Made by a program: the position numbers and the translations under genes | Part shown: piece by piece, positions 1-28,022 of the stretch | Layout of the letters: every line of letters begins with the position of its first letter | How positions within the stretch are numbered: the stretch's first letter is position 1 | Notes under the pieces: model-generated | The model's database searches: none | Told to the model about the DNA's origin: nothing | What the model saw: only the letters and a program-made list of their open reading frames with translations | Assembly: GCA_035256305.1 (NCBI GenBank) | Contig: DATEYH010000138.1 | Span: 1 to 37,343, forward strand | Reading direction: 5' to 3' | DNA length: 37,343 nt | Source of the DNA: Candidatus Nanoarchaeia archaeon | GTDB lineage: Archaea > Nanobdellota > Nanobdellia > Woesearchaeales > SM23-78

Positions 1-65
1 TTTCGTTCTTGACTGGACATTTGTTCGCGTGAAGCTTAAATACAACTATCAACAGCAAATATTCT

Positions 66-311
66 ATGAAGCAGGAATTCATAAGCATCAACAGCACAAT
101 CCAGGACTATGACGAGTACGTGAAGAACATCATCCTCCTAAAGAATTACCTGAAGAACAAGGTAAAGGAATTATTGTTTGAGGAGAATTTTGTGCTCACA
201 GAGAACCATAATGGCAGCTACCATGCCTCAAGCCTGGTGTTTTACAGCAAGGAAAAAGACTTGCAAGTTGAGATAAATATTAAAAAGAAAAATGAAGAAG
301 TTTTTGTCTAG
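66..311 (+). CDS. hypothetical protein (81 aa)
   Basis: ORF only; Lys/Glu/Asn-rich with no recognisable motif. Confidence 0.3.
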   Translation: MKQEFISINSTIQDYDEYVKNIILLKNYLKNKVKELLFEENFVLTENHNGSYHASSLVFYSKEKDLQVEINIKKKNEEVFV

Positions 312-10979: not shown

Positions 10980-11813
10980 TTATGTTAACCTTTTCCTCTT
11001 AGATTTTTCAGGCTCTGAAAGGTAGCTTTCTTTTGAGGTTATGGGTTTGCCTATTTCTTTCTCAGCATCTTTCCTGGCTTTTCCAGCAACCCTTCCCCCT
11101 CTTCTTGCTGAATCCTGGCATTGTTTGAGCCCTTGCGAGTCTTTTGTTTGAGTAATCTCAGTGGTTACTTTCTCACCAAGCATAGTAAATATTAATTCTA
11201 AATCATTCATATGATCTCTTAAGTTATGCCTTTTCAAGCCTTTGAACTGCTTGTATTCTTCAACAGTCTTTCCAAAAGTAGCCTTGCTAATATCGTTGGT
11301 TAATATCGCGAACTCAACATTCTCATCAACACCCCTGTTCTTCCACTCATCAGTCAGTTCCTGTCTTATAGCGATTCCCCTAACTCTCTTCTCAATCCAC
11401 TCATCAGAATAACCTTTGGCCCGGTAAAGCTCTTTCATTCTCTTCTGGGCTAACTCAGGATCCTGTATTTCCTGCACTCTTTCATAGCCAACCTTTGCAA
11501 GCCAAAGCTTGAAAGGCTCTGCCTTGGGTGATGGGATAGACTGGATAATCCTGAACATATTTTTGGTATTTGCGCAGTCAGTTTCCCTTAGTTTACCATC
11601 TTCTGCTGGTAATTTCAACTGTAAACAAAATGTTAACAGTTGAGGCTCTCGGCTCTTTAAAACGCCCCAATACTGTCTGGGACTAGGGCTATCAGTTAAA
11701 GCTTGCACAATATCAACAACTGAGAAATACCACTCATCATTATGCCAAACCCTTCTGATTTTCTTGTCCTGAAAAACAACCAGTGCCTTGTCTTGACTAA
11801 CATTTTCTGTCAT
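10980..11813 (-). CDS. Bro-N domain protein (phage antirepressor / DinD-like)
   Basis: N-terminus LVVFQDKKIRRVWHNDEWYFSVVDIVQALTDS is the Bro-N pattern; basic C-terminal tail. Confidence 0.7.
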   Translation of the reverse strand: MTENVSQDKALVVFQDKKIRRVWHNDEWYFSVVDIVQALTDSPSPRQYWGVLKSREPQLLTFCLQLKLPAEDGKLRETDCANTKNMFRIIQSIPSPKAEPFKLWLAKVGYERVQEIQDPELAQKRMKELYRAKGYSDEWIEKRVRGIAIRQELTDEWKNRGVDENVEFAILTNDISKATFGKTVEEYKQFKGLKRHNLRDHMNDLELIFTMLGEKVTTEITQTKDSQGLKQCQDSARRGGRVAGKARKDAEKEIGKPITSKESYLSEPEKSKRKRLT

Positions 11814-12819: not shown

Positions 12820-12874
12820 ACGAAACGAGAAGATTAAGGGGCTTCCACACCGGTGACGAACGGGAAAATTAATT

Positions 12875-12917
12875 GGCTTCCACAACTATTTCTTACGAGG
12901 AGGGAAGTGGACAGCGG
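12875..12917 (+). repeat. dispersed intergenic repeat, copy B
   Basis: GGCTTCCACAACTATTTCTTACGAGGAGGGAAGTGGACAGCGG; see copy A. Both full copies sit between convergent gene ends. Confidence 0.7.
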
Positions 12918-13058
12918 AGGATGGATTTCCGAAGAAAGGATACAACCAGAAAAGGGAGAAGATAGTTTATCATATGTGAAGCAAATAAAACTTTAATTTT
13001 ATCCATTATGAAGAGTAAAATTAAAACAATGAAGGTATATAATTATATACTTTTAGAT

Positions 13059-13439
13059 TCAATTCTTGGATTTGCTAAAAGGGTGCCACTTCTTCCAAAC
13101 CAATTCAGAAAAGTAGAGAAGTCTATCAACAAATCTTACCAATTTTAATGATATCAGGATTACAATAAAGAAGAGCAGGGATATTGCGAATGCACCTAAA
13201 GGCACATCAATTAATAAATTTCCACTAAATGGATGCGCAGCGAAATCATATTTACTTAGAACCCATGAAGTGGCTCCTGAAAGCGTACTTGCAATTATTA
13301 TTGTAATGTAATCTTTACTTTTAACGAAATCTTTTTTTTCTTCACAGGAATACTTATATAACTCTTTTAAAGAAGGTTTATCCGATAATTTCATTAAAAT
13401 TGAGAATGCGCACTTATTTTTATTTTTTACTATTTTCAC
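13059..13439 (-). CDS. membrane protein, unknown function
   Basis: 126 aa with two clear hydrophobic helices. Confidence 0.4.
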   Translation of the reverse strand: MKIVKNKNKCAFSILMKLSDKPSLKELYKYSCEEKKDFVKSKDYITIIIASTLSGATSWVLSKYDFAAHPFSGNLLIDVPLGAFAISLLFFIVILISLKLVRFVDRLLYFSELVWKKWHPFSKSKN

Positions 13440-13566
13440 TACCCTAGAACTTCTTCAGAACATTCACTAGCGTTCCTTGTTCTTTCATCCGGGAGACTTG
13501 CATATCTTTTTCACTATCCTTCAGCGAGGCTCTTTCCGAGGGAAAAATAATAAAACCTGGTTATAT

Positions 13567-13935
13567 TCAATTCTTTTTAGAACGCAACTCAGAAATCCAC
13601 TTCTCAATTTCTTGAATTCGAACATCATATAATTTCTCTTTAGATTTCATAATCATTTGAACTCCTTGATAAGCAAGGCTGCCCACTAAAAAAGGAAGTC
13701 CAAAAATCAAAAGGATGAGCATAATTAATGCAACTATTACATTAAATTCTATAATCGCTTTTACAACAGAAGTGATGGTATTAGTAAAGGCATTAGCTAA
13801 AAAGCCCGTTGTAACCAAAAAAGTTAAGACTCCTGCCAAGATTGAAACAGCCAAAGAATGCAATTCTTTTTCTTTCTCAAGCTTTAATTCAATTTTCTTC
13901 AATTTTAACTCAAATATCTTCTCATCCTTATCCAT
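13567..13935 (-). CDS. membrane protein with N- and C-terminal coiled segments, unknown function
   Basis: 122 aa with two hydrophobic helices flanked by Lys/Glu-rich segments. Confidence 0.4.
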   Translation of the reverse strand: MDKDEKIFELKLKKIELKLEKEKELHSLAVSILAGVLTFLVTTGFLANAFTNTITSVVKAIIEFNVIVALIMLILLIFGLPFLVGSLAYQGVQMIMKSKEKLYDVRIQEIEKWISELRSKKN

Positions 13936-14114
13936 GTAATCAAGTAATTCATTCCACTATTTAACTCTTACGTTTCAAAAAGAACTCTTCGCTCACGAAT
14001 GCGCTGCACTTATTCTGTTCGCTCGTCGCCCCATCTCTCAGCCTCGCACCTCTCACTCACTTTCGTTCATGGAGGCTCAGCTGGAGAGATATCCCCTATA
14101 GCAATTGATAGTAC

Positions 14115-14612
14115 TTAGTTACACTGTTCTTCTTGTCTATATTTTGTTACTATTCGTGTTTCTTTTTTTGTTCCCGGAATAACTTGATATTGTACTGTGA
14201 AATCCTCTCCAGAGCTAATATCATATTCTTCTCTAAATTCTATAGCTTCTCCTGGCATGATATAATGTGCTGACTTTAATGAGGTTTCTCCATCTTCTAA
14301 GGTTTTAAAGATTTGAGTCACAGTAAATTCTCCGGTTTCCGAATCAACATTTTTTACTTTTACTATTCCAACTGCCCAAACGTCCAATATCCCTTTGAAT
14401 ATTGTTGTTTTTGTATCCTCAACAACTTCATATTTCAAGTCAACAGAGTATTCTTCAGTAGTTTCATAAGGAACGTCTACCATTTTACATTTTTGTATAG
14501 GGCTAGTAAACTTGATAGTAGACCGGTCTGACGAGCTACAAGCAGTTAACGCTAAGCTAAACATTATTAACAAAATAGAACTCACAATAAGGAAGTTATT
14601 CATTTTATGCAC
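14115..14612 (-). CDS. putative lipoprotein
   Basis: Signal peptide ending in lipobox LALTAC; beta-rich mature part. Confidence 0.5.
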   Translation of the reverse strand: MHKMNNFLIVSSILLIMFSLALTACSSSDRSTIKFTSPIQKCKMVDVPYETTEEYSVDLKYEVVEDTKTTIFKGILDVWAVGIVKVKNVDSETGEFTVTQIFKTLEDGETSLKSAHYIMPGEAIEFREEYDISSGEDFTVQYQVIPGTKKETRIVTKYRQEEQCN

Positions 14613-14703
14613 CCCCGCGTATTGTGTGTTTAGAATCCTGACTTTATTTAAAAAGAATGTGTTTTTTAAGAAGATTTAAATAGATAAAGTTCCTGTTATA
14701 TTA

Positions 14704-14937
14704 ATGACCGACATGGAACCTAAAAAAAGCATTCCTATTAAAGGTTGGAGATGGATATTCTTTATAATAGGGATTATTTTCGGAATATTGAATGTTGCCT
14801 TTTGGGTATATTACCTAATTTTACATTCAAAAATGAAAGATAAATGGGACACTCAAAAATACTTTGCCTTTTTTTGGTGGGGTGTTTTTGTAAGCGTTCT
14901 TTTAGGAATAGCCATTATTGTGAATATAATATTTTAA
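14704..14937 (+). CDS. small two-helix membrane protein
   Basis: 77 aa with two Trp/Phe-rich hydrophobic helices. Confidence 0.4.
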   Translation: MTDMEPKKSIPIKGWRWIFFIIGIIFGILNVAFWVYYLILHSKMKDKWDTQKYFAFFWWGVFVSVLLGIAIIVNIIF

Positions 14938-14969
14938 AAAAGATTTAAATAATATAATTAATTACAAGA

Positions 14970-17288
14970 TCATACTTCTCCTGGCTGTTCTCCAATTGTT
15001 TGCCAAAAAGCCAATCCTTCAGCTCCTGTAGTGCAGGGCCCTGCTCCTAATCCGTATGGATTATTATGAACTCCTATAAATGCACAGATGTGTTGATAAC
15101 ATCCAATTGCACCACTTTTATGTTCATAAAGAAGATTATAACGATGACCTCGGCTCGTCATCCAGGAATCAACTGCTTCTTTAGGACTTGTGCCGGCAAT
15201 CGGTTCACCACTTTCATAATAAGTCATTCCGCCGAGGTTTTCTGCGAGAATTTCGTTTTCACTAAAGCCGTATTCACTTTTCATATCCTTTACACAAGTA
15301 CCTTCTGGTGTTACGTGATCGAAATAATTTCTTTCAGTCAAATCTTTAGACCGTGCAACTGCTAATTTATAAGCCCTTTCATCCCAGTCAATTTCATTTT
15401 TACCGTTTTCTTCCCTTAGCTGATTGATATAATCAAAAGCTTCCAAGTCTTGAACTTTTTTACTCTCGATACAATCTCCTTTCCAAATTGAATAACCCCA
15501 TTTACATCCACATTTTTCTGCGAAGGGGATTAGCTCTCCTTCTTTACAGTAATACGGCTTGTTATCATTACATTGACCATATTCTGTTCTATCAGAGCAA
15601 CGCATAATCTTCTTACAAGAATTTCCGTCTTTTCGATAGTCTTCAGGGCAACCGCATTCATCTGCATTGTTAATTAATGTTCCGTTAATGCATTGCTTTG
15701 GTTTGTTTAGAGAGCATTCTGGAGAGAGTGTGTTATCTGAACATTTTATTATAACTATGCATTCCTTTTGATACTCCCTTTGCCCCCCAGGACATCCGCA
15801 TTTGACAGCATCTTTTTTTAAACCCGAATAAGAGCAAAAAAACGGTGGATTACTGGAACAATCATTCAGTTGGGTTCCATCGCTGCATGTTATTTCTTCA
15901 CCAAATAAATTAAATACGAAATTTCTAACGATAAGAAAACGAGGTTGCTTAACAGAGTAGTTAATCACCTCAATGTAACTAAAATTCTTCTGAACTAATA
16001 TTGTTCCCGAAATATCCCTTTCAGATTTTTTTATGCTCGAAACATTAATCTTTAAATCGTTATAACTTCTTTTAAACACTCCCGTTATCTCATAAATATC
16101 AGGAGACGTCCCTTTATTTAGGAAAAATGAAGAATATTCTGACTCCCTGTTGATAAAATCCAGAGTGTTCCCATCATCATCGGCGATGGCTTGAACATAA
16201 ACTCCGGAAGTACTGCTACCTTTAACATACCTTTGAAGAAAACCTTTCAGCGTTACCGGTTGATTATTATAAGCAGTTCTATTTGCCAAATATTTTGAAA
16301 ATGACATGTGGGAAGTAATTGTTTGATTTTCGTAAACGGTCCTTATTTTTGTAAGATTCTCTGTTACTTCTTGCGTTGTTGTACTAAACGTCAGGTATAG
16401 AATAATTATAAAAATGAGAATTATTGGCAGAAATATTTTTATCAGTCGAAGAATGATTTTTTTCTTTTTTACATTAGGTTTTTTATTTTCTGATTTGATT
16501 TCTTCTTTTTCATCTGGCTTAATCTTAGTCTCTTCAGTTTCTTTCTTCGTTTCTGTTTCTAGTTTAGCTTCTAATGACTTGGCAGGAGCCTTGCTCGGAG
16601 TTTCTTTTCGCGGTGACTTGATAACTAAGTCTAGTTTTTTCCTGTATTCCTCTTGTTTTCTTTTTTGTTCAGCTTCCCAGTACTCAACAAAGTCCGGGCA
16701 AGGATGTCCCCCCATTTTACGCCATTCTTCCATGAATATTTTATCTTCTGGCCTGTTACTTTTGAATCTAGGAGGCCCCGCTGGCTTAGGCCTAAGATGG
16801 AAGGTGCAGAAAAACTGTTTGCAGTAAGAGCATTTTTTTAATTCTGTTTTTTTCTTACAATAATAATAACTACATTCATGTTTATTCAATTTTTTCTTAA
16901 CAATTTTTTCATTTTCTTTATCTAAGTTTAAACCGCCGCCCAAGTATATCCCTCCGGGCGGCTTCCAGGTGCCTAATCGAGCATTGCTCTGGGTTGCATA
17001 AAAACTGCTTTCGTGGCTTGGGTTTACAAGATGTGTTACTTCATGAGAAGCAGCTTCTTCAATTTCTTCAAAAGTCATCTGTTTTAGCCTTCGTTTAGAA
17101 ACACAAATAATGCCAGTTTCAATGTGTATATGCGCCCATTCATCAGGTCCTTCATATGGACATCTATCTTCATGAAATTCAACTCTGGGAATTTCAACAT
17201 TAAGGAATTCGGCTGTCTTTTTAACTGTAGCTAGAAATCTTGCTTTTTTCTCTGTTAAAATTTTATCTTCAAACGCGTCAGGTTCCAT
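14970..17288 (-). CDS. multidomain membrane protein: WLM/SprT-like Zn-protease + AN1-like zinc finger (cytoplasmic), TM helix, 3 Cys-rich repeats + CAP/SCP/PR-1 domain (extracellular)
   Basis: HEVTHLVNPSH (HExxHx5H) at aa 82-92. C-x4-C-x9-C-x2-C-x4-C-x2-H ... H-x-C at aa 139-197. Hydrophobic helix at aa 279-301. Three ~45-aa repeats ending CGCP/CGCK at aa 468-606. CAP motifs (YFDHV, WMTSRGHRYNLL) at aa 615-745. Confidence 0.75.
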   Translation of the reverse strand: MEPDAFEDKILTEKKARFLATVKKTAEFLNVEIPRVEFHEDRCPYEGPDEWAHIHIETGIICVSKRRLKQMTFEEIEEAASHEVTHLVNPSHESSFYATQSNARLGTWKPPGGIYLGGGLNLDKENEKIVKKKLNKHECSYYYCKKKTELKKCSYCKQFFCTFHLRPKPAGPPRFKSNRPEDKIFMEEWRKMGGHPCPDFVEYWEAEQKRKQEEYRKKLDLVIKSPRKETPSKAPAKSLEAKLETETKKETEETKIKPDEKEEIKSENKKPNVKKKKIILRLIKIFLPIILIFIIILYLTFSTTTQEVTENLTKIRTVYENQTITSHMSFSKYLANRTAYNNQPVTLKGFLQRYVKGSSTSGVYVQAIADDDGNTLDFINRESEYSSFFLNKGTSPDIYEITGVFKRSYNDLKINVSSIKKSERDISGTILVQKNFSYIEVINYSVKQPRFLIVRNFVFNLFGEEITCSDGTQLNDCSSNPPFFCSYSGLKKDAVKCGCPGGQREYQKECIVIIKCSDNTLSPECSLNKPKQCINGTLINNADECGCPEDYRKDGNSCKKIMRCSDRTEYGQCNDNKPYYCKEGELIPFAEKCGCKWGYSIWKGDCIESKKVQDLEAFDYINQLREENGKNEIDWDERAYKLAVARSKDLTERNYFDHVTPEGTCVKDMKSEYGFSENEILAENLGGMTYYESGEPIAGTSPKEAVDSWMTSRGHRYNLLYEHKSGAIGCYQHICAFIGVHNNPYGLGAGPCTTGAEGLAFWQTIGEQPGEV

Positions 17289-17319
17289 TTTTTTATAGAG
17301 TGAAGATACATTTTGGCGT

Positions 17320-17340
17320 ATTAATGTTTTTCTGTTTTTT
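17320..17340 (-). promoter_or_regulatory. shared promoter module copy 1 (plus strand ATTAATGTTTTTCTGTTTTTT)
   Basis: One of four near-identical copies, each 22-29 nt upstream of a minus-strand start codon. On the minus strand it reads as a purine-rich BRE-like tract followed by an ATTAATA TATA-like box. Confidence 0.6.
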
Positions 17341-17363
17341 CATCAATCCCTGCAGAAGAATAG

Positions 17364-17666
17364 TTACCGCATCCGGAATGGAATGCCGTGCTCTTCCAAA
17401 AGCACTTTCCTTATCTTTTGACGAACCCAATGACCGCGTTTGCCTCTTCTCTTAATGATGTCATGGCTGGTCTTAATAACAAGCCGCATGAACTCATTTC
17501 TTGTAGGCTCTCTTTTATGCCTAAGCTTAAATTTCCTTAATCGCTTGTTTAAGTTCCTATGAGCTCTGGCTCTTAGCTTACGGGAAAGAAATGGTCTTCG
17601 CTTTTTTGGAGCTACTGGAGGAAAAAGCCATCTAAGAAATTTTTTAATCTTGGTAAATAAACTCAT
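17364..17666 (-). CDS. highly basic small protein (100 aa, about 40% Lys/Arg), unknown function
   Basis: ORF preceded by promoter module copy 2 at leaderless spacing; no recognisable domain. Confidence 0.45.
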   Translation of the reverse strand: MSLFTKIKKFLRWLFPPVAPKKRRPFLSRKLRARAHRNLNKRLRKFKLRHKREPTRNEFMRLVIKTSHDIIKRRGKRGHWVRQKIRKVLLEEHGIPFRMR

Positions 17667-17690
17667 ACATTCAACCTTAAGTTTCAGTAT

Positions 17691-17710
17691 ATTAATGTTT
17701 TTTCGTTTTT
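17691..17710 (-). promoter_or_regulatory. shared promoter module copy 2
   Basis: ATTAATGTTTTTTCGTTTTT; TATA-like box ends 22 nt upstream of ATG 17666. Confidence 0.6.
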
Positions 17711-17720
17711 ATTTAAATTA

Positions 17721-18416
17721 TTAATCTACAAATTTAGCTGTAAAAATAAGTTCCTTTGAGTCTCTTGTTGGCGTGATGTTACTATAGCAGGTTAAGTTAC
17801 AGAGATACCTCCCAATTTTTACTTCAGTGGGAAAATCAGTGAATTTTATGGTATAGCTTCCTCCACAATATTCTTGGGTTTTCATAAGAACAATTCTTGT
17901 TGTAGAGCCTAAATTTGGACTATCAGTTATGCAAGCAGTAGTAGGTCCTGCCATTCCAGACCAACCTCGTTGAATAATTTTACCAATATATTGTTCGCAA
18001 CTTGAATCGCAAAAAACATCTCTTAGTAACGTATTACCAGTGTTCACAACAGTAAAAGTAAATGCGAGATAGTTCAATTCACGGGATATGTCACAAAAAC
18101 CTATATAAGTGTCATTAGTTATTTTTTCAATGTTTGAACAAGGTGCAGGTCCTGGTCCAGGTCCTATATCAAGGCGACTGATTGATATTTCATTTTTTTC
18201 CACAGTTTCTTGTGAACATAAAATAGGATTATCTACCTCCCTCCCATCATCACAATAATAGGCAGTTTTTTCAGGTTCTGGCGTAGGTTGGGGGCATAAG
18301 GAAGGGTCTGAGACCGTTTGCCCATTTGAACAAACATATTTAGCTGGCTCTTTTGAACAACTCGTTAAGAGAACTAACAAGAAAACTAACAAGAGCGATA
18401 TTTGAATAAGTTTCAT
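17721..18416 (-). CDS. cysteine-rich lipoprotein
   Basis: MKLIQISLLLVFLLVLLTSC lipobox. Duplicated Y-x-C-x2-G-x2-V-x2-P-x-LC motif. Start taken at ATG 18416, 22 nt from the TATA-like box (tracked ORF starts at 18425). Confidence 0.55.
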   Translation of the reverse strand: MKLIQISLLLVFLLVLLTSCSKEPAKYVCSNGQTVSDPSLCPQPTPEPEKTAYYCDDGREVDNPILCSQETVEKNEISISRLDIGPGPGPAPCSNIEKITNDTYIGFCDISRELNYLAFTFTVVNTGNTLLRDVFCDSSCEQYIGKIIQRGWSGMAGPTTACITDSPNLGSTTRIVLMKTQEYCGGSYTIKFTDFPTEVKIGRYLCNLTCYSNITPTRDSKELIFTAKFVD

Positions 18417-18440
18417 CAAAAGCATTATTATTTATCCAAT

Positions 18441-18461
18441 ATTAATGTTTTTCTGTTTTTT
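18441..18461 (-). promoter_or_regulatory. shared promoter module copy 3
   Basis: ATTAATGTTTTTCTGTTTTTT. Confidence 0.6.
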
Positions 18462-18547
18462 CTGTGTTTTTGATGTTAAATCTTGCTTTTATAGACTATA
18501 AATAAGCCTTTGAAAATATAAGCTCTGAGTTTGCTTAACCTAAATCA

Positions 18548-19576
18548 CTAATTTCTAATTAGAACATCTCCATCAGAAATAGTTATTGCCTCCGCATCAT
18601 AATATGACCCATAAACATCTGAATAATACCTGAAATTAGGGTCAGAAACTAAAGTAGTTTCTATAGGACAATAAACTATATCCCCATACTTACGACCGCT
18701 TAAACATTTAACTCCTACAGAAGCATGGTCTGCTTCTTCAAACATAAGTAGAGCTGTTCCATAACCTAATTCTCTTAGAAGGTAAATAAGAAGCAGGCTT
18801 TTTTCTTCACACAAACCTCTTTGTTCATAAAGAACCTGGAAAGGATACTTTCTATCTAAAGAATAGTTTCCTTCATTCGTAAGCTCATTTTCTAAAATCA
18901 AAAGTTTCTTATAATCATAAGAAATATATTGCACTAGGTTAATTGCAATATCTGCTTGTTCGTCTCTATTTGGAGTCTGCTTTTTTATCTCGCTTAATAA
19001 TTCATTTAAAAATGGTCTTTGGGCTTCCTCATCAAGAAATTTATTATAAAAATTCCTTCCTTCCTCCTCAGAGTAACCTTCATAGAGGACAGGTCTACGT
19101 AACTGTTTTAAATATTCGTTTAACCCTCCATATACTGTGAAATTCATGTAATCCTTTTCACCCACACGCAATTTTATTGTTTTAGGATTCAATTTGAAAT
19201 TATACTCGCAGTTTTCACCAACTACAACCATTAAAGGAGGGCAACCACACTCGGAAGCTTTATTAACCAACCATCCATTTTCACAATATAAAGGCTTATT
19301 TCTTGAGCATTCTCCATATTTTGTTCCTTCTATTCTATACATAACATCATCAGCCCAATATACTACATCGTCAAGACATCTTTGACTTGAATAATACTCC
19401 TGTTGCTCAGTGATATTATCAGAAGAATTGTCTGTGCTTTCATTTTCAACATAAATTCCGTTTTGGCTATAATTTGTTGGCTTGGAATAATTATTAGTAA
19501 CAATTGTTCCTTGTAATGAAGGATTACATGAAGTAATAAAAAGAAGAATTACCAATAACAAAAACAGTTCTTTCAT
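18548..19576 (-). CDS. secreted transglutaminase-like cysteine protease-fold protein with N-terminal Cys-rich module
   Basis: Signal/lipobox MKELFLLLVILLFITSC. GECSRNKPLYCENGWLVNKASECGCPP is the same module as in 14970-17288. QRGLCEEKSLLLIYLLRELGY...HASVGV fits a transglutaminase-like Cys/His core. The tracked N-terminal 28 codons overlap the promoter module. Confidence 0.6.
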   Translation of the reverse strand: MKELFLLLVILLFITSCNPSLQGTIVTNNYSKPTNYSQNGIYVENESTDNSSDNITEQQEYYSSQRCLDDVVYWADDVMYRIEGTKYGECSRNKPLYCENGWLVNKASECGCPPLMVVVGENCEYNFKLNPKTIKLRVGEKDYMNFTVYGGLNEYLKQLRRPVLYEGYSEEEGRNFYNKFLDEEAQRPFLNELLSEIKKQTPNRDEQADIAINLVQYISYDYKKLLILENELTNEGNYSLDRKYPFQVLYEQRGLCEEKSLLLIYLLRELGYGTALLMFEEADHASVGVKCLSGRKYGDIVYCPIETTLVSDPNFRYYSDVYGSYYDAEAITISDGDVLIRN

Positions 19577-19604
19577 ATTATTGAATGTAAAGATAATCTT
19601 GAAT

Positions 19605-19624
19605 ATTAATGTTTTTTCGTTTTT
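19605..19624 (-). promoter_or_regulatory. shared promoter module copy 4
   Basis: ATTAATGTTTTTTCGTTTTT; TATA-like box ends 26 nt upstream of ATG 19576. Confidence 0.6.
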
Positions 19625-19628
19625 ACTC

Positions 19629-19802
19629 TTATTTTCTAGGTAATTGTATGGTTGGTTCAATTTCTTTAGCTTTTTTATAATCGTTCTCCGCGCCTTTTAA
19701 ATCGCCCATTCTTTGTTTTATGAGTCCTCTTTCAACATATGCATCAGCATAATCTGGCTTAATTTTTATACATTTATTTAGGTCCTTCAGATTATTCTTC
19801 AA
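19629..19802 (-). pseudogene. TPR-repeat fragment (about 57 codons, no ATG)
   Basis: Minus-strand frame reads ...LKDLNKCIKIKPDYADAYVERGLIKQRMGDLKGAENDYKKAKEIEPTIQLPRK*, a single TPR unit. An in-frame stop lies just upstream and only a TTG could start it. Confidence 0.35.
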
Positions 19803-20030
19803 ACTCCTATTAATTTCCTTATCAGTTTAATGCTTATTTCTTAATCTATGCTTTGTCAAGGACTTTTTGTAATGATTATTTGTCATTATGCTTTTCTCAC
19901 TTCAATAATCGTTATAAACAATATCATCTTTTTCTTTCTTTTATCGTCGAGTGTTCAAGAGGCAGCTTTGCAGGGTTCTAGCAATGTATGAATGTTAGCA
20001 TGGCTAGCCAGGGCCATGGAGGTTCGTATC

Positions 20031-23230: not shown

Positions 23231-23389
23231 ATACTAACTTAGGATTAGCAAGTATAACTACCTGTGGTAGTAGAAATTATCTGAAAAGCCTTAAGGAGTA
23301 GTTATTTACCAAAAATCAAACAATACCTCTTAATTCAGTTTGAGGTTTTACTTCGCTTATTTGATTACAAAAAAAGCATACCTCGTTGT

Positions 23390-23612
23390 TTACAGCGAGG
23401 ATTGGTTTCCTTTTTTTGGATCAACAAAAGCTTTGCTTTTGAGCGCCAAAACAAAGTTTTGAGCGCAACAACCTCGCTTAATGCTTTTTTTGTACCAACA
23501 AAAGCTCTGCTTTTGAGTGCCAAAAAGCTTCGCTTTTTGAGCACAACATACCTTGCCCTTTAGGGCGAGGTTGTTGATTTTTGGAAATAATTCAGCCCGA
23601 AGGCCGAAATTA
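23390..23612 (-). repeat. cluster of four A/T-foot hairpin modules plus a 12-bp long-range inverted repeat and a UUCG-capped hairpin, in the 3' flank of the Lrp-like gene
   Basis: Units at 23424-23446, 23447-23466, 23499-23521 and 23521-23544 (minus-strand reading GCTCAAAAGC-loop-GCTTTTG-TTG). Inverted repeat 23466-23477 / 23565-23576. Hairpin 23586-23616. Confidence 0.7.
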
Positions 23613-24164
23613 TTTATCCAAGAAAAAATCATTTGATAAAGCTTCTTCAGGGTTAAGAATCGTGTTCAACAGGCCGATATGATTTGTTTTGATAATCCTA
23701 TCAACTGAAAAAGGGTAGACATTCACTATTTCAATCTCTTTTGAATATTTGCTTTGCAGCCTCATCAGGTACCTGTCCTTATCGTCAATATTCTTAAAGC
23801 CCATGACCAGCAAATGGGAGATTCTTGATTCAGGGACACGATACGCGATTATCACCTGCGGAATTTTTAGTATTTTTTCAGCGATCTCCTCCTCTGAATA
23901 CTTGTTCCAAATATACTGGGTAAACCTTACGCCTAAAACAACCAATGCCTCAATCCCAATTTTTTTATAATCAATGATAGGCATATACCCCCTTATTATC
24001 CCTACCTTCTCAAGCTTATGCCTGATCTTGAAGATTGCTTGCTGGGAGAGCCCCATCTTATGGGCGATTTCCAAATCAGGTATTTTGGCCTGCTCAATAA
24101 TCTTTTTCAGAACTTTTTGCTCGTTTCTTGTTAATTTAGGAAAGTTAACATCGGGCTTTTCCAT
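23610..24164 (-). CDS. Lrp/AsnC-like HTH transcriptional regulator
   Basis: N-terminal LTRNEQKVLKKIIEQAKIPDLEIAHKMGLSQQAIFKIRHKLEKVGIIRGY (winged-HTH AsnC type) plus a C-terminal alpha/beta domain. TTTATATA about 23 nt upstream of the ATG. Confidence 0.7.
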   Translation of the reverse strand: MEKPDVNFPKLTRNEQKVLKKIIEQAKIPDLEIAHKMGLSQQAIFKIRHKLEKVGIIRGYMPIIDYKKIGIEALVVLGVRFTQYIWNKYSEEEIAEKILKIPQVIIAYRVPESRISHLLVMGFKNIDDKDRYLMRLQSKYSKEIEIVNVYPFSVDRIIKTNHIGLLNTILNPEEALSNDFFLDK

Positions 24165-26091: not shown

Positions 26092-27240
26092 TTATTCTGG
26101 CTTTGCCAGCTTCCATAACAAGTCAAAATACTTCCTGTAACCATCGGCTATTGCTTTCTTGTCTATTATTATTGTTGTAATTGGTTCTGTCCAGTCAATG
26201 ATTACAACCTTATCATCATATATCTCCATGTGCAAAGGGCTAAAGTATTCTTCAGGCAAAAACCTTATTTGTGCAAGCTCTGCTTTTCTTTTGATTTTTG
26301 AACCTTTTTTGAAAAGTAACCTCTCATGAATAGCTCTTTTATTCTCTATGTCTATTAGTTCGTCCAGTTCCCTGGTCAGTTTTTCCTGAAGCTTGGATTC
26401 TTCAAGCCCGAATGCAAGTATTTCCCTGTTTGTCTGCGCCATGTCCTTAAGAGCAAACCTTAGCCCATCCAGTCCTATGAATGTTTTTGTCTGCTGATTC
26501 CAGAGCAGCTCGAACTGTTTTAGGAAAGAAGCCGCGACTTCCTTGTTATCAATCACTATGAGCAATGGCTGTTTTTCTGTTTCAGAGGGAAAAATAAGAA
26601 CTCTGTCGTGGAAGATGTTTATTCCTGCAGGCATGGCTTGTTCATTCTGCATAAACCTTATCTCTGATAACGGATTATTTTCTGGAAGTGCTTGTAATTC
26701 TCCTCTTGCGCTTTCATTGAATAACTGCCTTGCCTCCACACCTCGCCTTGCTCTTTCAGCATTCCATTTCACAAAGAAGAGGTTGACTTTGTCTGAGCGC
26801 TGAGGAATTCCGTATACATAAAAGGTTTCGCCTTTCTTCATTAGCTTGAGGGCATCATAAAAAGCAGTTTCAATTCCTCGCATTCCCCTGTAAATCGTTG
26901 CTTCCTGCTTATACTTGGCCATCTCTTTTTTTAGCACTAGTTGAGGGAGCAGTTGCTCAACTTCTTTTTTCTGAGTTGCAAGTTCCTCTTCTCTTTCCTT
27001 AAGGTAGTCAAGTATTCTTTCAGGGGGTGCTGCTTCAAAGTATTTTGTGCTGCCTTTCATCACATGGCTCGCCATTCCTTTGTGTATTAGCCGGTCAAGT
27101 ATCTCATAAATTTTTGAGCTGGCTGCTCCTGATTTATCAACGATTGGGCCTGTTGTGGAGGAGCCTAGCTCCAGGAGTGCAAGGTAGACTTTTATCTCTG
27201 ATTTGGTCAGGCCTATTTGTTCTAGTATTTCTAGGTTCAT
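26092..27240 (-). CDS. TrmB-family transcriptional regulator
   Basis: From MNLEILEQIGLTKSEIKVYLALLELGSSTTGPIVDKSGAASSKIYEILDRLIHKGM (TrmB wHTH), then a coiled coil and a C-terminal domain. The tracked 45-codon N-terminal extension covers the promoter. Confidence 0.75.
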   Translation of the reverse strand: MNLEILEQIGLTKSEIKVYLALLELGSSTTGPIVDKSGAASSKIYEILDRLIHKGMASHVMKGSTKYFEAAPPERILDYLKEREEELATQKKEVEQLLPQLVLKKEMAKYKQEATIYRGMRGIETAFYDALKLMKKGETFYVYGIPQRSDKVNLFFVKWNAERARRGVEARQLFNESARGELQALPENNPLSEIRFMQNEQAMPAGINIFHDRVLIFPSETEKQPLLIVIDNKEVAASFLKQFELLWNQQTKTFIGLDGLRFALKDMAQTNREILAFGLEESKLQEKLTRELDELIDIENKRAIHERLLFKKGSKIKRKAELAQIRFLPEEYFSPLHMEIYDDKVVIIDWTEPITTIIIDKKAIADGYRKYFDLLWKLAKPE

Positions 27241-27285
27241 AGGATAATCATTATTTTGCTTATTTATATTCTTTTCTAATTTCTC

Positions 27286-27297
27286 CCCCTTAAGGGG
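27286..27297. promoter_or_regulatory. perfect 12-nt palindrome CCCCTTAAGGGG between divergent TATA boxes
   Basis: Lies between the TATA-like box of the TrmB gene (about 27260-27270) and GTTTATATAG (27306-27315) of the divergent 27366 gene. Confidence 0.35.
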
Positions 27298-27365
27298 TAG
27301 GTAATGTTTATATAGTATATCTACTAAATAGTGGTTACAAGATAACAGAAAGAGGTGAAACAAAA

Positions 27366-28022
27366 ATGAAAACATTCATGCAAAAAATCAGGGAGAAAGC
27401 AAAGAAGGCAATAGTGGGCGCTGCAATAGCAGGCACGCTGGCTATGCCAATGAAAGCCAAGGCTGATATGAACGGAAGCCTGGAAGCAATAGCAGGACCA
27501 ACTAAGCAGAGTACTTACCTAAGAGGTAACGCATTCTACCAACTGCCTGGAAAGATTGGAGGCTACACCTTCATAGAACTCTACCAAGGAGGCAATGGCT
27601 ACTTTGGAAAGAGCATGTTAGGAAGGGAAATAAAAGGAGGAATATTAGCAAAAGGAGAGATAGTTCACTGCAACGAGCCTTTCAGCGAAGCAAGGCTTGG
27701 TCTAGAAGCCAAGTTGCCAACTCCAAAAGGCACCACGCTCCAAGTAAAAGCTCTTCCTGTCTGCGTAGATAAAGACGGAAAAATCGTGCCCAGAAAAGTG
27801 ATGGTAGGCTACTTTGCAGATGTACAGCTAGGCAAAGGATGGAGCATAAGCAGCTTCGGAGATTTCAACGCCCTGCAAGGAGGGCAATGGGAGTACGGGG
27901 AAGTCAGCCTGAAAAAATACGTTTGGGACGGAGTGTCGGTGGCATATAACCCAGCGCTAAAGGCAAGTGGAAAGCTAGCGCCCATAATAGAGCACAGAGT
28001 GACCTTAGGCATAGACTTCTAG
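27366..28022 (+). CDS. secreted beta-rich protein with an outer-membrane-protein-like C-terminus
   Basis: Signal peptide ...AIAGTLAMPMKAKA, alternating hydrophobic beta-strand pattern, C-terminal ...RVTLGIDF. GAGGTGA 8 nt upstream of the ATG. Confidence 0.55.
   Translation: MKTFMQKIREKAKKAIVGAAIAGTLAMPMKAKADMNGSLEAIAGPTKQSTYLRGNAFYQLPGKIGGYTFIELYQGGNGYFGKSMLGREIKGGILAKGEIVHCNEPFSEARLGLEAKLPTPKGTTLQVKALPVCVDKDGKIVPRKVMVGYFADVQLGKGWSISSFGDFNALQGGQWEYGEVSLKKYVWDGVSVAYNPALKASGKLAPIIEHRVTLGIDF

Follow-up and report, generated by a model that had tools for sequence, protein, structure and literature searches.

Four consecutive genes that are each preceded by the same short sequence raise the question of whether the repeat is a promoter which makes them a set, or a recurrence of AT-rich DNA. 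Such a cluster lies on the minus strand of contig DATEYH010000138.1 (assembly GCA_035256305.1), derived from a Candidatus Nanoarchaeia archaeon, of which the whole stretch of 37,343 nucleotides (nt) was analysed and is referred to below as the window. The four genes are here named g1 to g4, and the repeated element, the module, reads AAAAAC-RR-AAAAAC-ATTAATA on the coding (minus) strand and is present as four copies of 21-23 nt within 2.3 kb. We consider it likely that the module represents a specialised class of core promoter, composed of a TFB-recognition element (BRE) and a TATA box together with a conserved upstream A5C unit, which would provide each gene with its own near-leaderless transcript.

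A repeated module at the promoter position of four genes

On the plus strand the 12-mer ATTAATGTTTTT was found exactly four times in the window, at 17320, 17691, 18441 and 19605, confirming the sites listed in the first-pass annotation. When up to one mismatch was allowed, five sites were observed (the four exact ones and a one-mismatch site at 26477) against about 0.78 expected by chance, and none of 100 shuffled sequences reached this count. Throughout the 1.18-Mb genome the 19-mer ATTAATGTTTTTYNKTTTT was detected only at the same four sites and, with one mismatch, at two others on contigs C45 and C101, its reversed control giving no match. Full copies of the module number five in the genome, against zero for the reversed control. 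A genome-wide search for the module had been proposed to define its regulon, and a common AT-rich repeat unrelated to gene starts had been named as the refuting outcome; the motif is not such a repeat.

The copies form two pairs, each identical over 23 of 23 nt: type A (GAAAAAACAGAAAAACATTAATA) precedes g1 and g3, and type B (TAAAAACGAAAAAACATTAATAT) precedes g2 and g4. All four are on the minus strand. The TTAATA of copy 1 (type A, 17319-17341) ends 30 nt before the g1 ATG (17288), that of copy 2 (type B, 17689-17711) 23 nt before the g2 ATG (17666), that of copy 3 (type A, 18439-18462, the 23-mer itself being 18440-18462) 23 nt before the second ATG of g3 (18416), and that of copy 4 (type B, 19603-19625) 27 nt before the g4 ATG (19576). 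A third A5C unit (18463-18475) precedes copy 3. Counted from the end of ATTAAT, the distance to the ATG is 31 nt for g1, 24 nt for g2 and 28 nt for g4; for g3 it is 15 nt to the first ATG (18425) and 24 nt to the second, which yields a proper lipoprotein signal, MKLIQISLLLVFLLVLLTSC. The earlier statement that the motif lies 22-29 nt upstream of the starts holds when measured from the end of the 8-nt box ATTAATAT, provided that g3 starts at 18416 and g4 at the ATG 19576 and not at the TTG 19660. No similarity was detected outside the 23 nt on either side of the four copies.

The assembly that holds the window (G000; 165 contigs, 83.6% complete, 42.6% GC) is archaeal, since the window encodes Kae1, ribosomal protein L10P with the archaeal insert, a diphthine-synthase-like methylase (Dph5) and NFACT-R; a bacterial sigma-70 and terminator scan has no meaning for it. 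Promoter statistics were collected from the upstream regions of about 1080 open reading frames (ORFs) called in the genome (1081 in the count of TTAATA). In 223 of these ORFs a TTTAWA starts between -34 and -28 of the ATG, where such starts are concentrated, and this generic box has an A-rich BRE ahead of it, with A at its positions -6 to -3. A separate subset of genes carries a G-rich Shine-Dalgarno (SD) signal at -12 to -8. By the TTTAWA and BRE statistics, the prevailing layout in this genome is thus the leaderless mRNA, with the end of the TATA box about 23 nt ahead of the ATG. The ATTAATAT box occupies the usual place of the TATA box ahead of these leaderless genes, and the proximal A5-6C agrees with the genome's own BRE profile. 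The 23-nt distance between TTAATA and the ATG in g2, g3 (second ATG) and the copies on C45 and C31 equals the modal distance of the generic TTTAWAW box. The spacing is thus consistent with the BRE/TATA unit for leaderless mRNAs that had been suggested.

Based on this arrangement, each gene would have its core promoter in the module copy that precedes it. In such a promoter the proximal A5-6C would serve as the BRE and [A/T]TTAATA(T) as an uncommon variant of the TATA box, and the 21-nt module would be completed by another A4-5C unit that lies 2-3 nt farther upstream than the BRE. Because the box lies at the standard distance of the genome, the expected start of transcription is the ATG itself or a position shortly ahead of it; leaderless mRNAs are predicted for g2 and g3, a leader of about 4 nt for g4 and one of about 7 nt for g1.

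No coding-strand run of five or more T is present in the spacers between the four genes, the only one being a T6 run at 14936-14941 (minus strand), 29-34 nt after the g1 stop codon, where it forms a terminator-like end of the cluster. Since neither SD sequences nor oligo-T terminators separate the genes, each would need its own promoter for leaderless translation; the lack of oligo-T also makes read-through from upstream possible. The pair of g2 and g1 is separated by 32 nt in G001, a member of the same genus, and by 12 nt in a marine relative (P0004/P0001, 46% and 49% identity), and in both cases an SD-like GAGGG/GGGAG and no module is found ahead of g1. The spacer here is 75 nt long and contains one module copy and no SD. 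By this comparison g1, which in the relatives appears to be SD-led and co-transcribed with g2, would here be placed under its own module copy instead.

Specificity in the genome and conservation among relatives

A TTAATA 21-26 nt from the ATG is found at 10 of the 1081 genes (about 1%), against 161 (15%) for TTTAWAW. Among 238 promoters at the leaderless position, AAAAC occurs at the distal place in 16 and at the proximal place in 13, and at both only in copies of the module. All-against-all comparison of the upstream regions also brought out other recurrent promoters, CGAAAGATTTATAAAT (8-12 copies), GAAACATTTAAAT (9 copies) and AATAATCTTTATAAACC; in the clustering of these regions the module family is the sole one with all its members adjacent and the sole one with a non-canonical box. 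The module is specific and not a generic AT-rich repeat. The fifth full copy, on C45, consists of GAAAAACCCGAAAAACATTAATA followed by 23 nt and the ATG of a gene for a 67-amino-acid (aa) membrane protein, behind which lies the gene for a 176-aa Cys-rich lipoprotein. A weaker copy on C31 has its TTAATA 23 nt before an ATG.

Variants with C[A/T]TTAATA were detected in at least six species of the genus and on two metagenome contigs, usually 23-25 nt before the ATG and often clustered, as with the same-genus variant AAAACAGAAAAACTTTAATA, found by a search with two mismatches allowed. G005 has three copies in 10 kb, heading a g1-like protein with an AN1 finger and a transmembrane (TM) helix, a lipoprotein and a small ORF. 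In G002, 1.4 kb separates a copy that heads the orthologous lipoprotein gene from one that heads the gene for a zinc-ribbon protein of 50 aa. Two copies in G006 lie within a 55-nt duplication and head two apparently cytoplasmic, nuclease/helicase-like genes. Single copies head a Mth938-like protein in G007 and the zinc-ribbon orthologue in G013. A g2 orthologue of 80% identity, on metagenome contig L221, retains AAAAAACGAAAAAACATTAAAA in its promoter. The exact 21-mer gave 34 matches in genome_contigs and 89 in metagenomes, which are scattered single matches in unrelated organisms, and no other contig in genome_contigs or metagenome_contigs has two copies. One of the 89, on L160, is AAAAACGGAAAAACATTAATAT, located 26 nt before a gene for a 148-aa membrane protein, and the next gene downstream encodes a homologue of the N-terminal domain of g1.

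In an alignment of 17 instances the information content is restricted to a 21-nt block, and the distal A4-5C sits 1-4 nt (2-3 nt in most) upstream of the proximal A-run; most of these instances had been found with the pattern itself and are to that extent ascertained by it. A set free of this bias is provided by six orthologues of the 'CEEWA' lipoprotein in the family, which were chosen by protein similarity only, without regard to the motif. All six promoters have a distal A4(C/G/A), a spacer of 1-4 nt, a proximal A-run and a box 22-24 nt before the ATG, the box being TTAATA in five and TTTAAAA in one (G011), and both flanks are unalignable. In a different family, two species carry AAACATTAATA without the distal unit ahead of the gene for a WLM-AN1-TM protein of 276 aa. 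Canonical TATA boxes and no module were seen for the g4 homologues (up to 42% identity) and for the majority of WLM-AN1 homologues of the order.

By these sequence comparisons the module is older than the cluster, a putative promoter class of genus level that was not invented at this locus. In the related species it stands ahead of a limited group of genes, shared in part between species and often side by side, which includes g1-like membrane proteins and their neighbours, one family of lipoproteins and the small zinc-ribbon protein; in the window it heads four consecutive genes within a low-GC island. Since this rare type of promoter heads a small and overlapping set of genes in relatives, mostly for membrane proteins and lipoproteins, the module probably marks a co-regulated set.

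Several observations weigh against a specialised near-leaderless promoter class. A 14-mer core gave 9 matches in 40 relatives against 8 for its reversed control, so that the case for conservation rests on context and clustering, not on counts. Two copies in G005 and G006 are located 44-46 nt from the ATG and are accompanied by an SD, indicating that the module is not tied to leaderless starts, and many members of the genus, such as G001 (92% complete), have no copy at all. Within the cluster, the boxes of g1 and g4 are 4-7 nt farther from the ATG than the mode. A canonical TTTAAATA lies 14 nt upstream of module copy 2, and a weak AGGT is present at -13 of g2, so that a leadered transcript is possible for this gene. 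Finally, no gene for TBP (PF00352) was detected in the assembly, from which it may simply be missing, given that the assembly is 83.6% complete.

Alternative readings of the repeat

The reading closest to the one preferred is that the distal A5C, its fixed distance of 2-3 nt to the BRE and the weak TATA box together make up a putative site for a dedicated activator or repressor, and that the genes behind it are a true regulon. This would refine the interpretation as a specialised core promoter rather than exclude it, and we hold it to be possible, if somewhat doubtful. The distal unit persists, amid a variable spacer and variable flanks, in the six CEEWA promoters and in those of the g2 and zinc-ribbon orthologues; the TATA variant, at about 1% of genes, is rare, as promoters that depend on a factor typically are; the gene sets of different species overlap and their members cluster; and an archaeal precedent is known in the upstream activating sequence (UAS) of GvpE (PMC2241852). 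Against it, no regulator gene is consistently linked to the module, the TrmB-like (26092-27375) and MarR-like (23610-24164) genes of the window being 4-7 kb away, and the fold of the basic protein g2 matches no DNA-binding protein. A single TFB was detected, ordinary promoters also show a mild preference for A-tracts ahead of the BRE, and in G006 the module heads the two apparently cytoplasmic genes. Two candidate recognition factors of the module gained no support. For g2 as its DNA-binding factor, the structural model is confident yet has no fold match; for an alternative TBP or TFB paralogue as recogniser, the 83.6%-complete assembly yielded a single TFB gene (on C64) and no TBP. A general 'secretome promoter' was rejected, as no k-mer between -48 and -18 is clearly enriched before genes with N-terminal hydrophobic segments (best p about 2e-3 over thousands of k-mers), and so was an RNA element or terminator, since there is no Rfam match, the spacers fold no better than shuffled sequences and the coding strand of the module is A-rich.

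Alternatively, a constitutive promoter could have spread locally by duplication or gene conversion with no shared regulation, its likeness to sequences in relatives reflecting the general BRE/TATA preference. The pairs identical over 23 nt are closer to each other than between-species variants are, which suggests recent local copying or conversion; other near-identical promoters, such as CGAAAGATTTATAAAT and GAAACATTTAAAT, recur in the genome, and in relatives the core is no more frequent than its control. Around the pairs, however, there is no sign of a duplicated flank, and similarity ends at 23 nt, so that duplication of a whole segment cannot be seen. The same unusual architecture stands before orthologous genes in six species whose flanks have diverged, and one of the otherwise scattered exact 21-mers is beside a g1 homologue on an independent metagenome contig. 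As the sole explanation this is unlikely. The earlier proposal that the cluster was built by promoter duplication keeps that part which concerns some recent local copying, to which the identical pairs would fit, but the use of the module for other genes in species of the genus argues against its invention in the cluster. It is very unlikely that the repeats are recombination sites (integron attC-like, or microhomologies) which delimit mobile gene cassettes. The accessory nature of g3 and g4, which have no orthologues in the family, the low-GC island around the cluster and the B-A-B-A alternation of copy types would suit such boundaries, but the copies form neither inverted repeats nor hairpins, folding of the spacers does not surpass that of shuffled sequences, and Pfam scans of the larger ORFs of the window gave no integrase or recombinase; moreover, one copy splits the conserved pair of g2 and g1, and the conserved position is relative to the ATG and not to gene ends. 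The remaining view, a functionless AT-rich repeat of low complexity, is effectively refuted. The sequence is A-rich, and unrelated bacteria do contain single exact matches (34 from genome_contigs and 89 from metagenomes), but the count was reached in none of the 100 shuffles or by the reversed control, the strand and the distance to the start codon are fixed, no further contig in either collection has two copies, and the module is conserved before orthologues.

The genes behind the module and the meaning of the locus

The first-pass annotation described the products as four surface proteins. This holds for g3, g4 and the outer half of g1, but is too strong as a whole, since g2 has no signal peptide and the HExxH/AN1 part of g1 is predicted to be cytoplasmic. 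Gene g1 (14970-17288, minus strand, no SD ahead) encodes 772 aa. Its N-terminus contains a zincin-like HExxH domain and an AN1-like zinc finger, both below threshold (WLM, PF08325, E=0.014 and 15.9 bits against a cut-off of 26 bits, over the HExxH stretch only; zf-AN1, E=0.14) and predicted to lie on the inner side of the membrane. Next come a linker rich in Lys, a single TM helix (about aa 281-300), an OB-like domain and three CGCP Cys modules, and the C-terminus is a CAP/SCP domain (PF00188, E=5.6e-10, 40.5 bits against a cut-off of 21.1 bits; E=4.8e-7 against the SCP domain of PDB 4ifa). The product is a single-pass membrane protein, with the OB-like, Cys and CAP parts outside and the HExxH/AN1 part predicted in the cytoplasm. 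Of its former name, WLM-CAP protein, the CAP half is borne out, and the WLM label stays below threshold. The HExxH/AN1 pair of domains is kept in 12 of 301 genomes of the order.

Gene g2 (17364-17666, minus strand) encodes a 100-aa protein of a conserved family that usually adjoins g1-like genes. Its content of Lys and Arg is 35% and not about 40% as first given. The AlphaFold (AF2) model (pLDDT 87.7) consists of an N-terminal helix and three further helices (aa 29-92) and gave no structural match, in particular none to DNA-binding folds; no Pfam match was obtained for the family. The genes of g2 and of g1-like HExxH/AN1 membrane proteins adjoin in at least five lineages (17364-17666 with 14970-17288 in the window; L009, L038, L221 and L222), in tandem in four and divergently in L221, and g2 may act as a partner to this membrane-anchored, protease-like product. 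The identical pair of 127 aa and 669 aa (P0004/P0001) was found in marine contigs L007-L012 with different flanking genes (DEAD/RecQ helicase, exonuclease VII, a helix-turn-helix protein, Yip1), which points to a mobile unit of two genes or else to extensive rearrangement among strains.

Gene g3 (17721-18416, minus strand) encodes a Cys-rich lipoprotein of 231 aa with 13 Cys and the lipobox LLTSC, and g4 (18548-19576, minus strand) a lipoprotein of 342 aa with the lipobox ITSC and one CGCP Cys module; neither has an orthologue in the family genomes searched. The C-terminal half of g4 resembles the transglutaminase core (PF01841, E=0.0015, 19.2 bits against a cut-off of 23 bits), and its homologue P0017 carries a precomputed PF01841 match. 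Of the earlier label of a secreted transglutaminase-like protein, the transglutaminase part is sub-threshold, and the CGCP module said to be common to g1 and g4 is indeed present in both. This Cys module recurs in large proteins on C78 (839-aa ORF) and C160 (732-aa ORF) and in G005 and G011, none of which has the promoter module.

Upstream of the cluster lies a TPR fragment of 57 aa with a TTG start and about 1.5 repeats (19629-19802, minus strand). Copy 4 had been placed inside the end of this gene, but it begins 3 nt after the TPR stop codon. The TPR frame runs on upstream (19629-19870, minus strand) across a single TAA to an ATG, MTNNHYKKSLTKHRLRNKH*TDKEINRS..., and because it continues upstream only across this stop, the ORF would be a remnant next to the module and not one interrupted by it; the fragment is probably such a remnant or a pseudogene with one in-frame stop. 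The whole cluster lies in a low-GC island of about 7 kb (12850-19950; GC 0.29-0.39 against 0.41-0.47 in the flanks and 0.426 in the genome), which contains the four module genes and four further small membrane-protein and lipoprotein genes without the module, and consists almost wholly of genes for small membrane, lipoprotein and Cys-rich proteins. The copy on C45 is likewise within low-GC DNA.

Other repeated upstream sequences were seen in the genome. Eight paralogues of about 230-284 aa, the window copy of which has Bro-N, share a long upstream block, CACTGGACATCT..CGCGTAAGG (also given as CACTGGACAT...CGCGTAAGG), followed by a TATA box, and two 82-aa genes share a related block, ACTGGACATTTGTTCGCGTGAA. 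These blocks appear to be either another, larger family of promoters/operators or an element present in multiple copies. The loci of these genes are 10980-11813 (minus strand) and 65-311 (plus strand) in the window, and C73, C76, C78, C99, C149, C155, C157 and C105. An extended promoter of about 38 nt, ACTACTWCTWAGTGRYTAMAAAAMCGAAAGATTTATAAA, occurs six times (C6, C77, C106, C118, and two copies on C128) and may drive RNA genes, since several copies have no ATG at the leaderless distance; ARAGORN found only 4 tRNAs genome-wide. A dispersed repeat of about 150 nt with GGCCTTTAGGCCGAAG hairpins has about eight copies (C22, C29, C53, C62, C63, C79, C86, C164) and a partial one near 23339 of the window, and the palindrome CAAAAGCAAAGCTTTTG occurs 12 times. 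The promoter module showed no connection with hairpin insertion modules at 23390-23612.

The motif is previously undescribed, but its kind is known, that of archaeal BRE/TATA promoters in which a few genes have an additional upstream element in common. In archaeal leaderless promoters the TATA box is centred about 26-28 nt upstream of the start and is preceded by an A-rich BRE (PMC8553660, PMC5316973; reviewed in PMC7289017). The module agrees with these in its A-rich element directly upstream of an 8-nt AT box and, in the modal copies, shares with the TTTAWAWA promoters of its own genome a box that ends 22-23 nt before the ATG; it differs in the box [A/T]TTAATA, present at about 1% of genes, and in the second A5C, which extends the block to 21 nt. 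The GvpE UAS of haloarchaeal gas-vesicle promoters is a distance-sensitive element of 20 nt whose two 8-nt portions adjoin the BRE on its upstream side (PMC2241852). The module likewise has a short element of two portions just upstream of the BRE, at a near-fixed distance and before a handful of genes. Further activator-dependent archaeal promoters in which the site abuts the BRE are those of Ptr2 in M. jannaschii, TFB-RF1 in P. furiosus and the ara-box in Sulfolobus. Unlike the GvpE and Ptr2 type, the module has no linked regulator, its element is only an A-tract of about 5-6 nt plus C, and its lineage, the DPANN, is a different one.

To our knowledge, gene regulation in DPANN archaea is almost unstudied, these organisms being uncultured episymbionts. 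In a bolder scenario, which we put forward as a speculation and judge rather unlikely, the 21-nt module would be an operator-promoter that switches a small and fluid set of genes for the envelope and for host contact, and its near-identical copies would wire newly acquired genes of the low-GC island into the regulon, leaderless single-gene units replacing SD-dependent operon expression. In kind, the module is an ordinary archaeal promoter with an upstream element. Being sharply bounded and shared across species, this class of promoter offers a testable handle on a possible regulon for the envelope or host interaction, both as a 21-nt bait for DNA-affinity capture and as a prediction for 5' ends in metatranscriptomes. 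The locus also illustrates how neighbouring genes may be expressed in an organism with leaderless translation, each from its own copy of the promoter, in place of the SD-led operon of its relatives.

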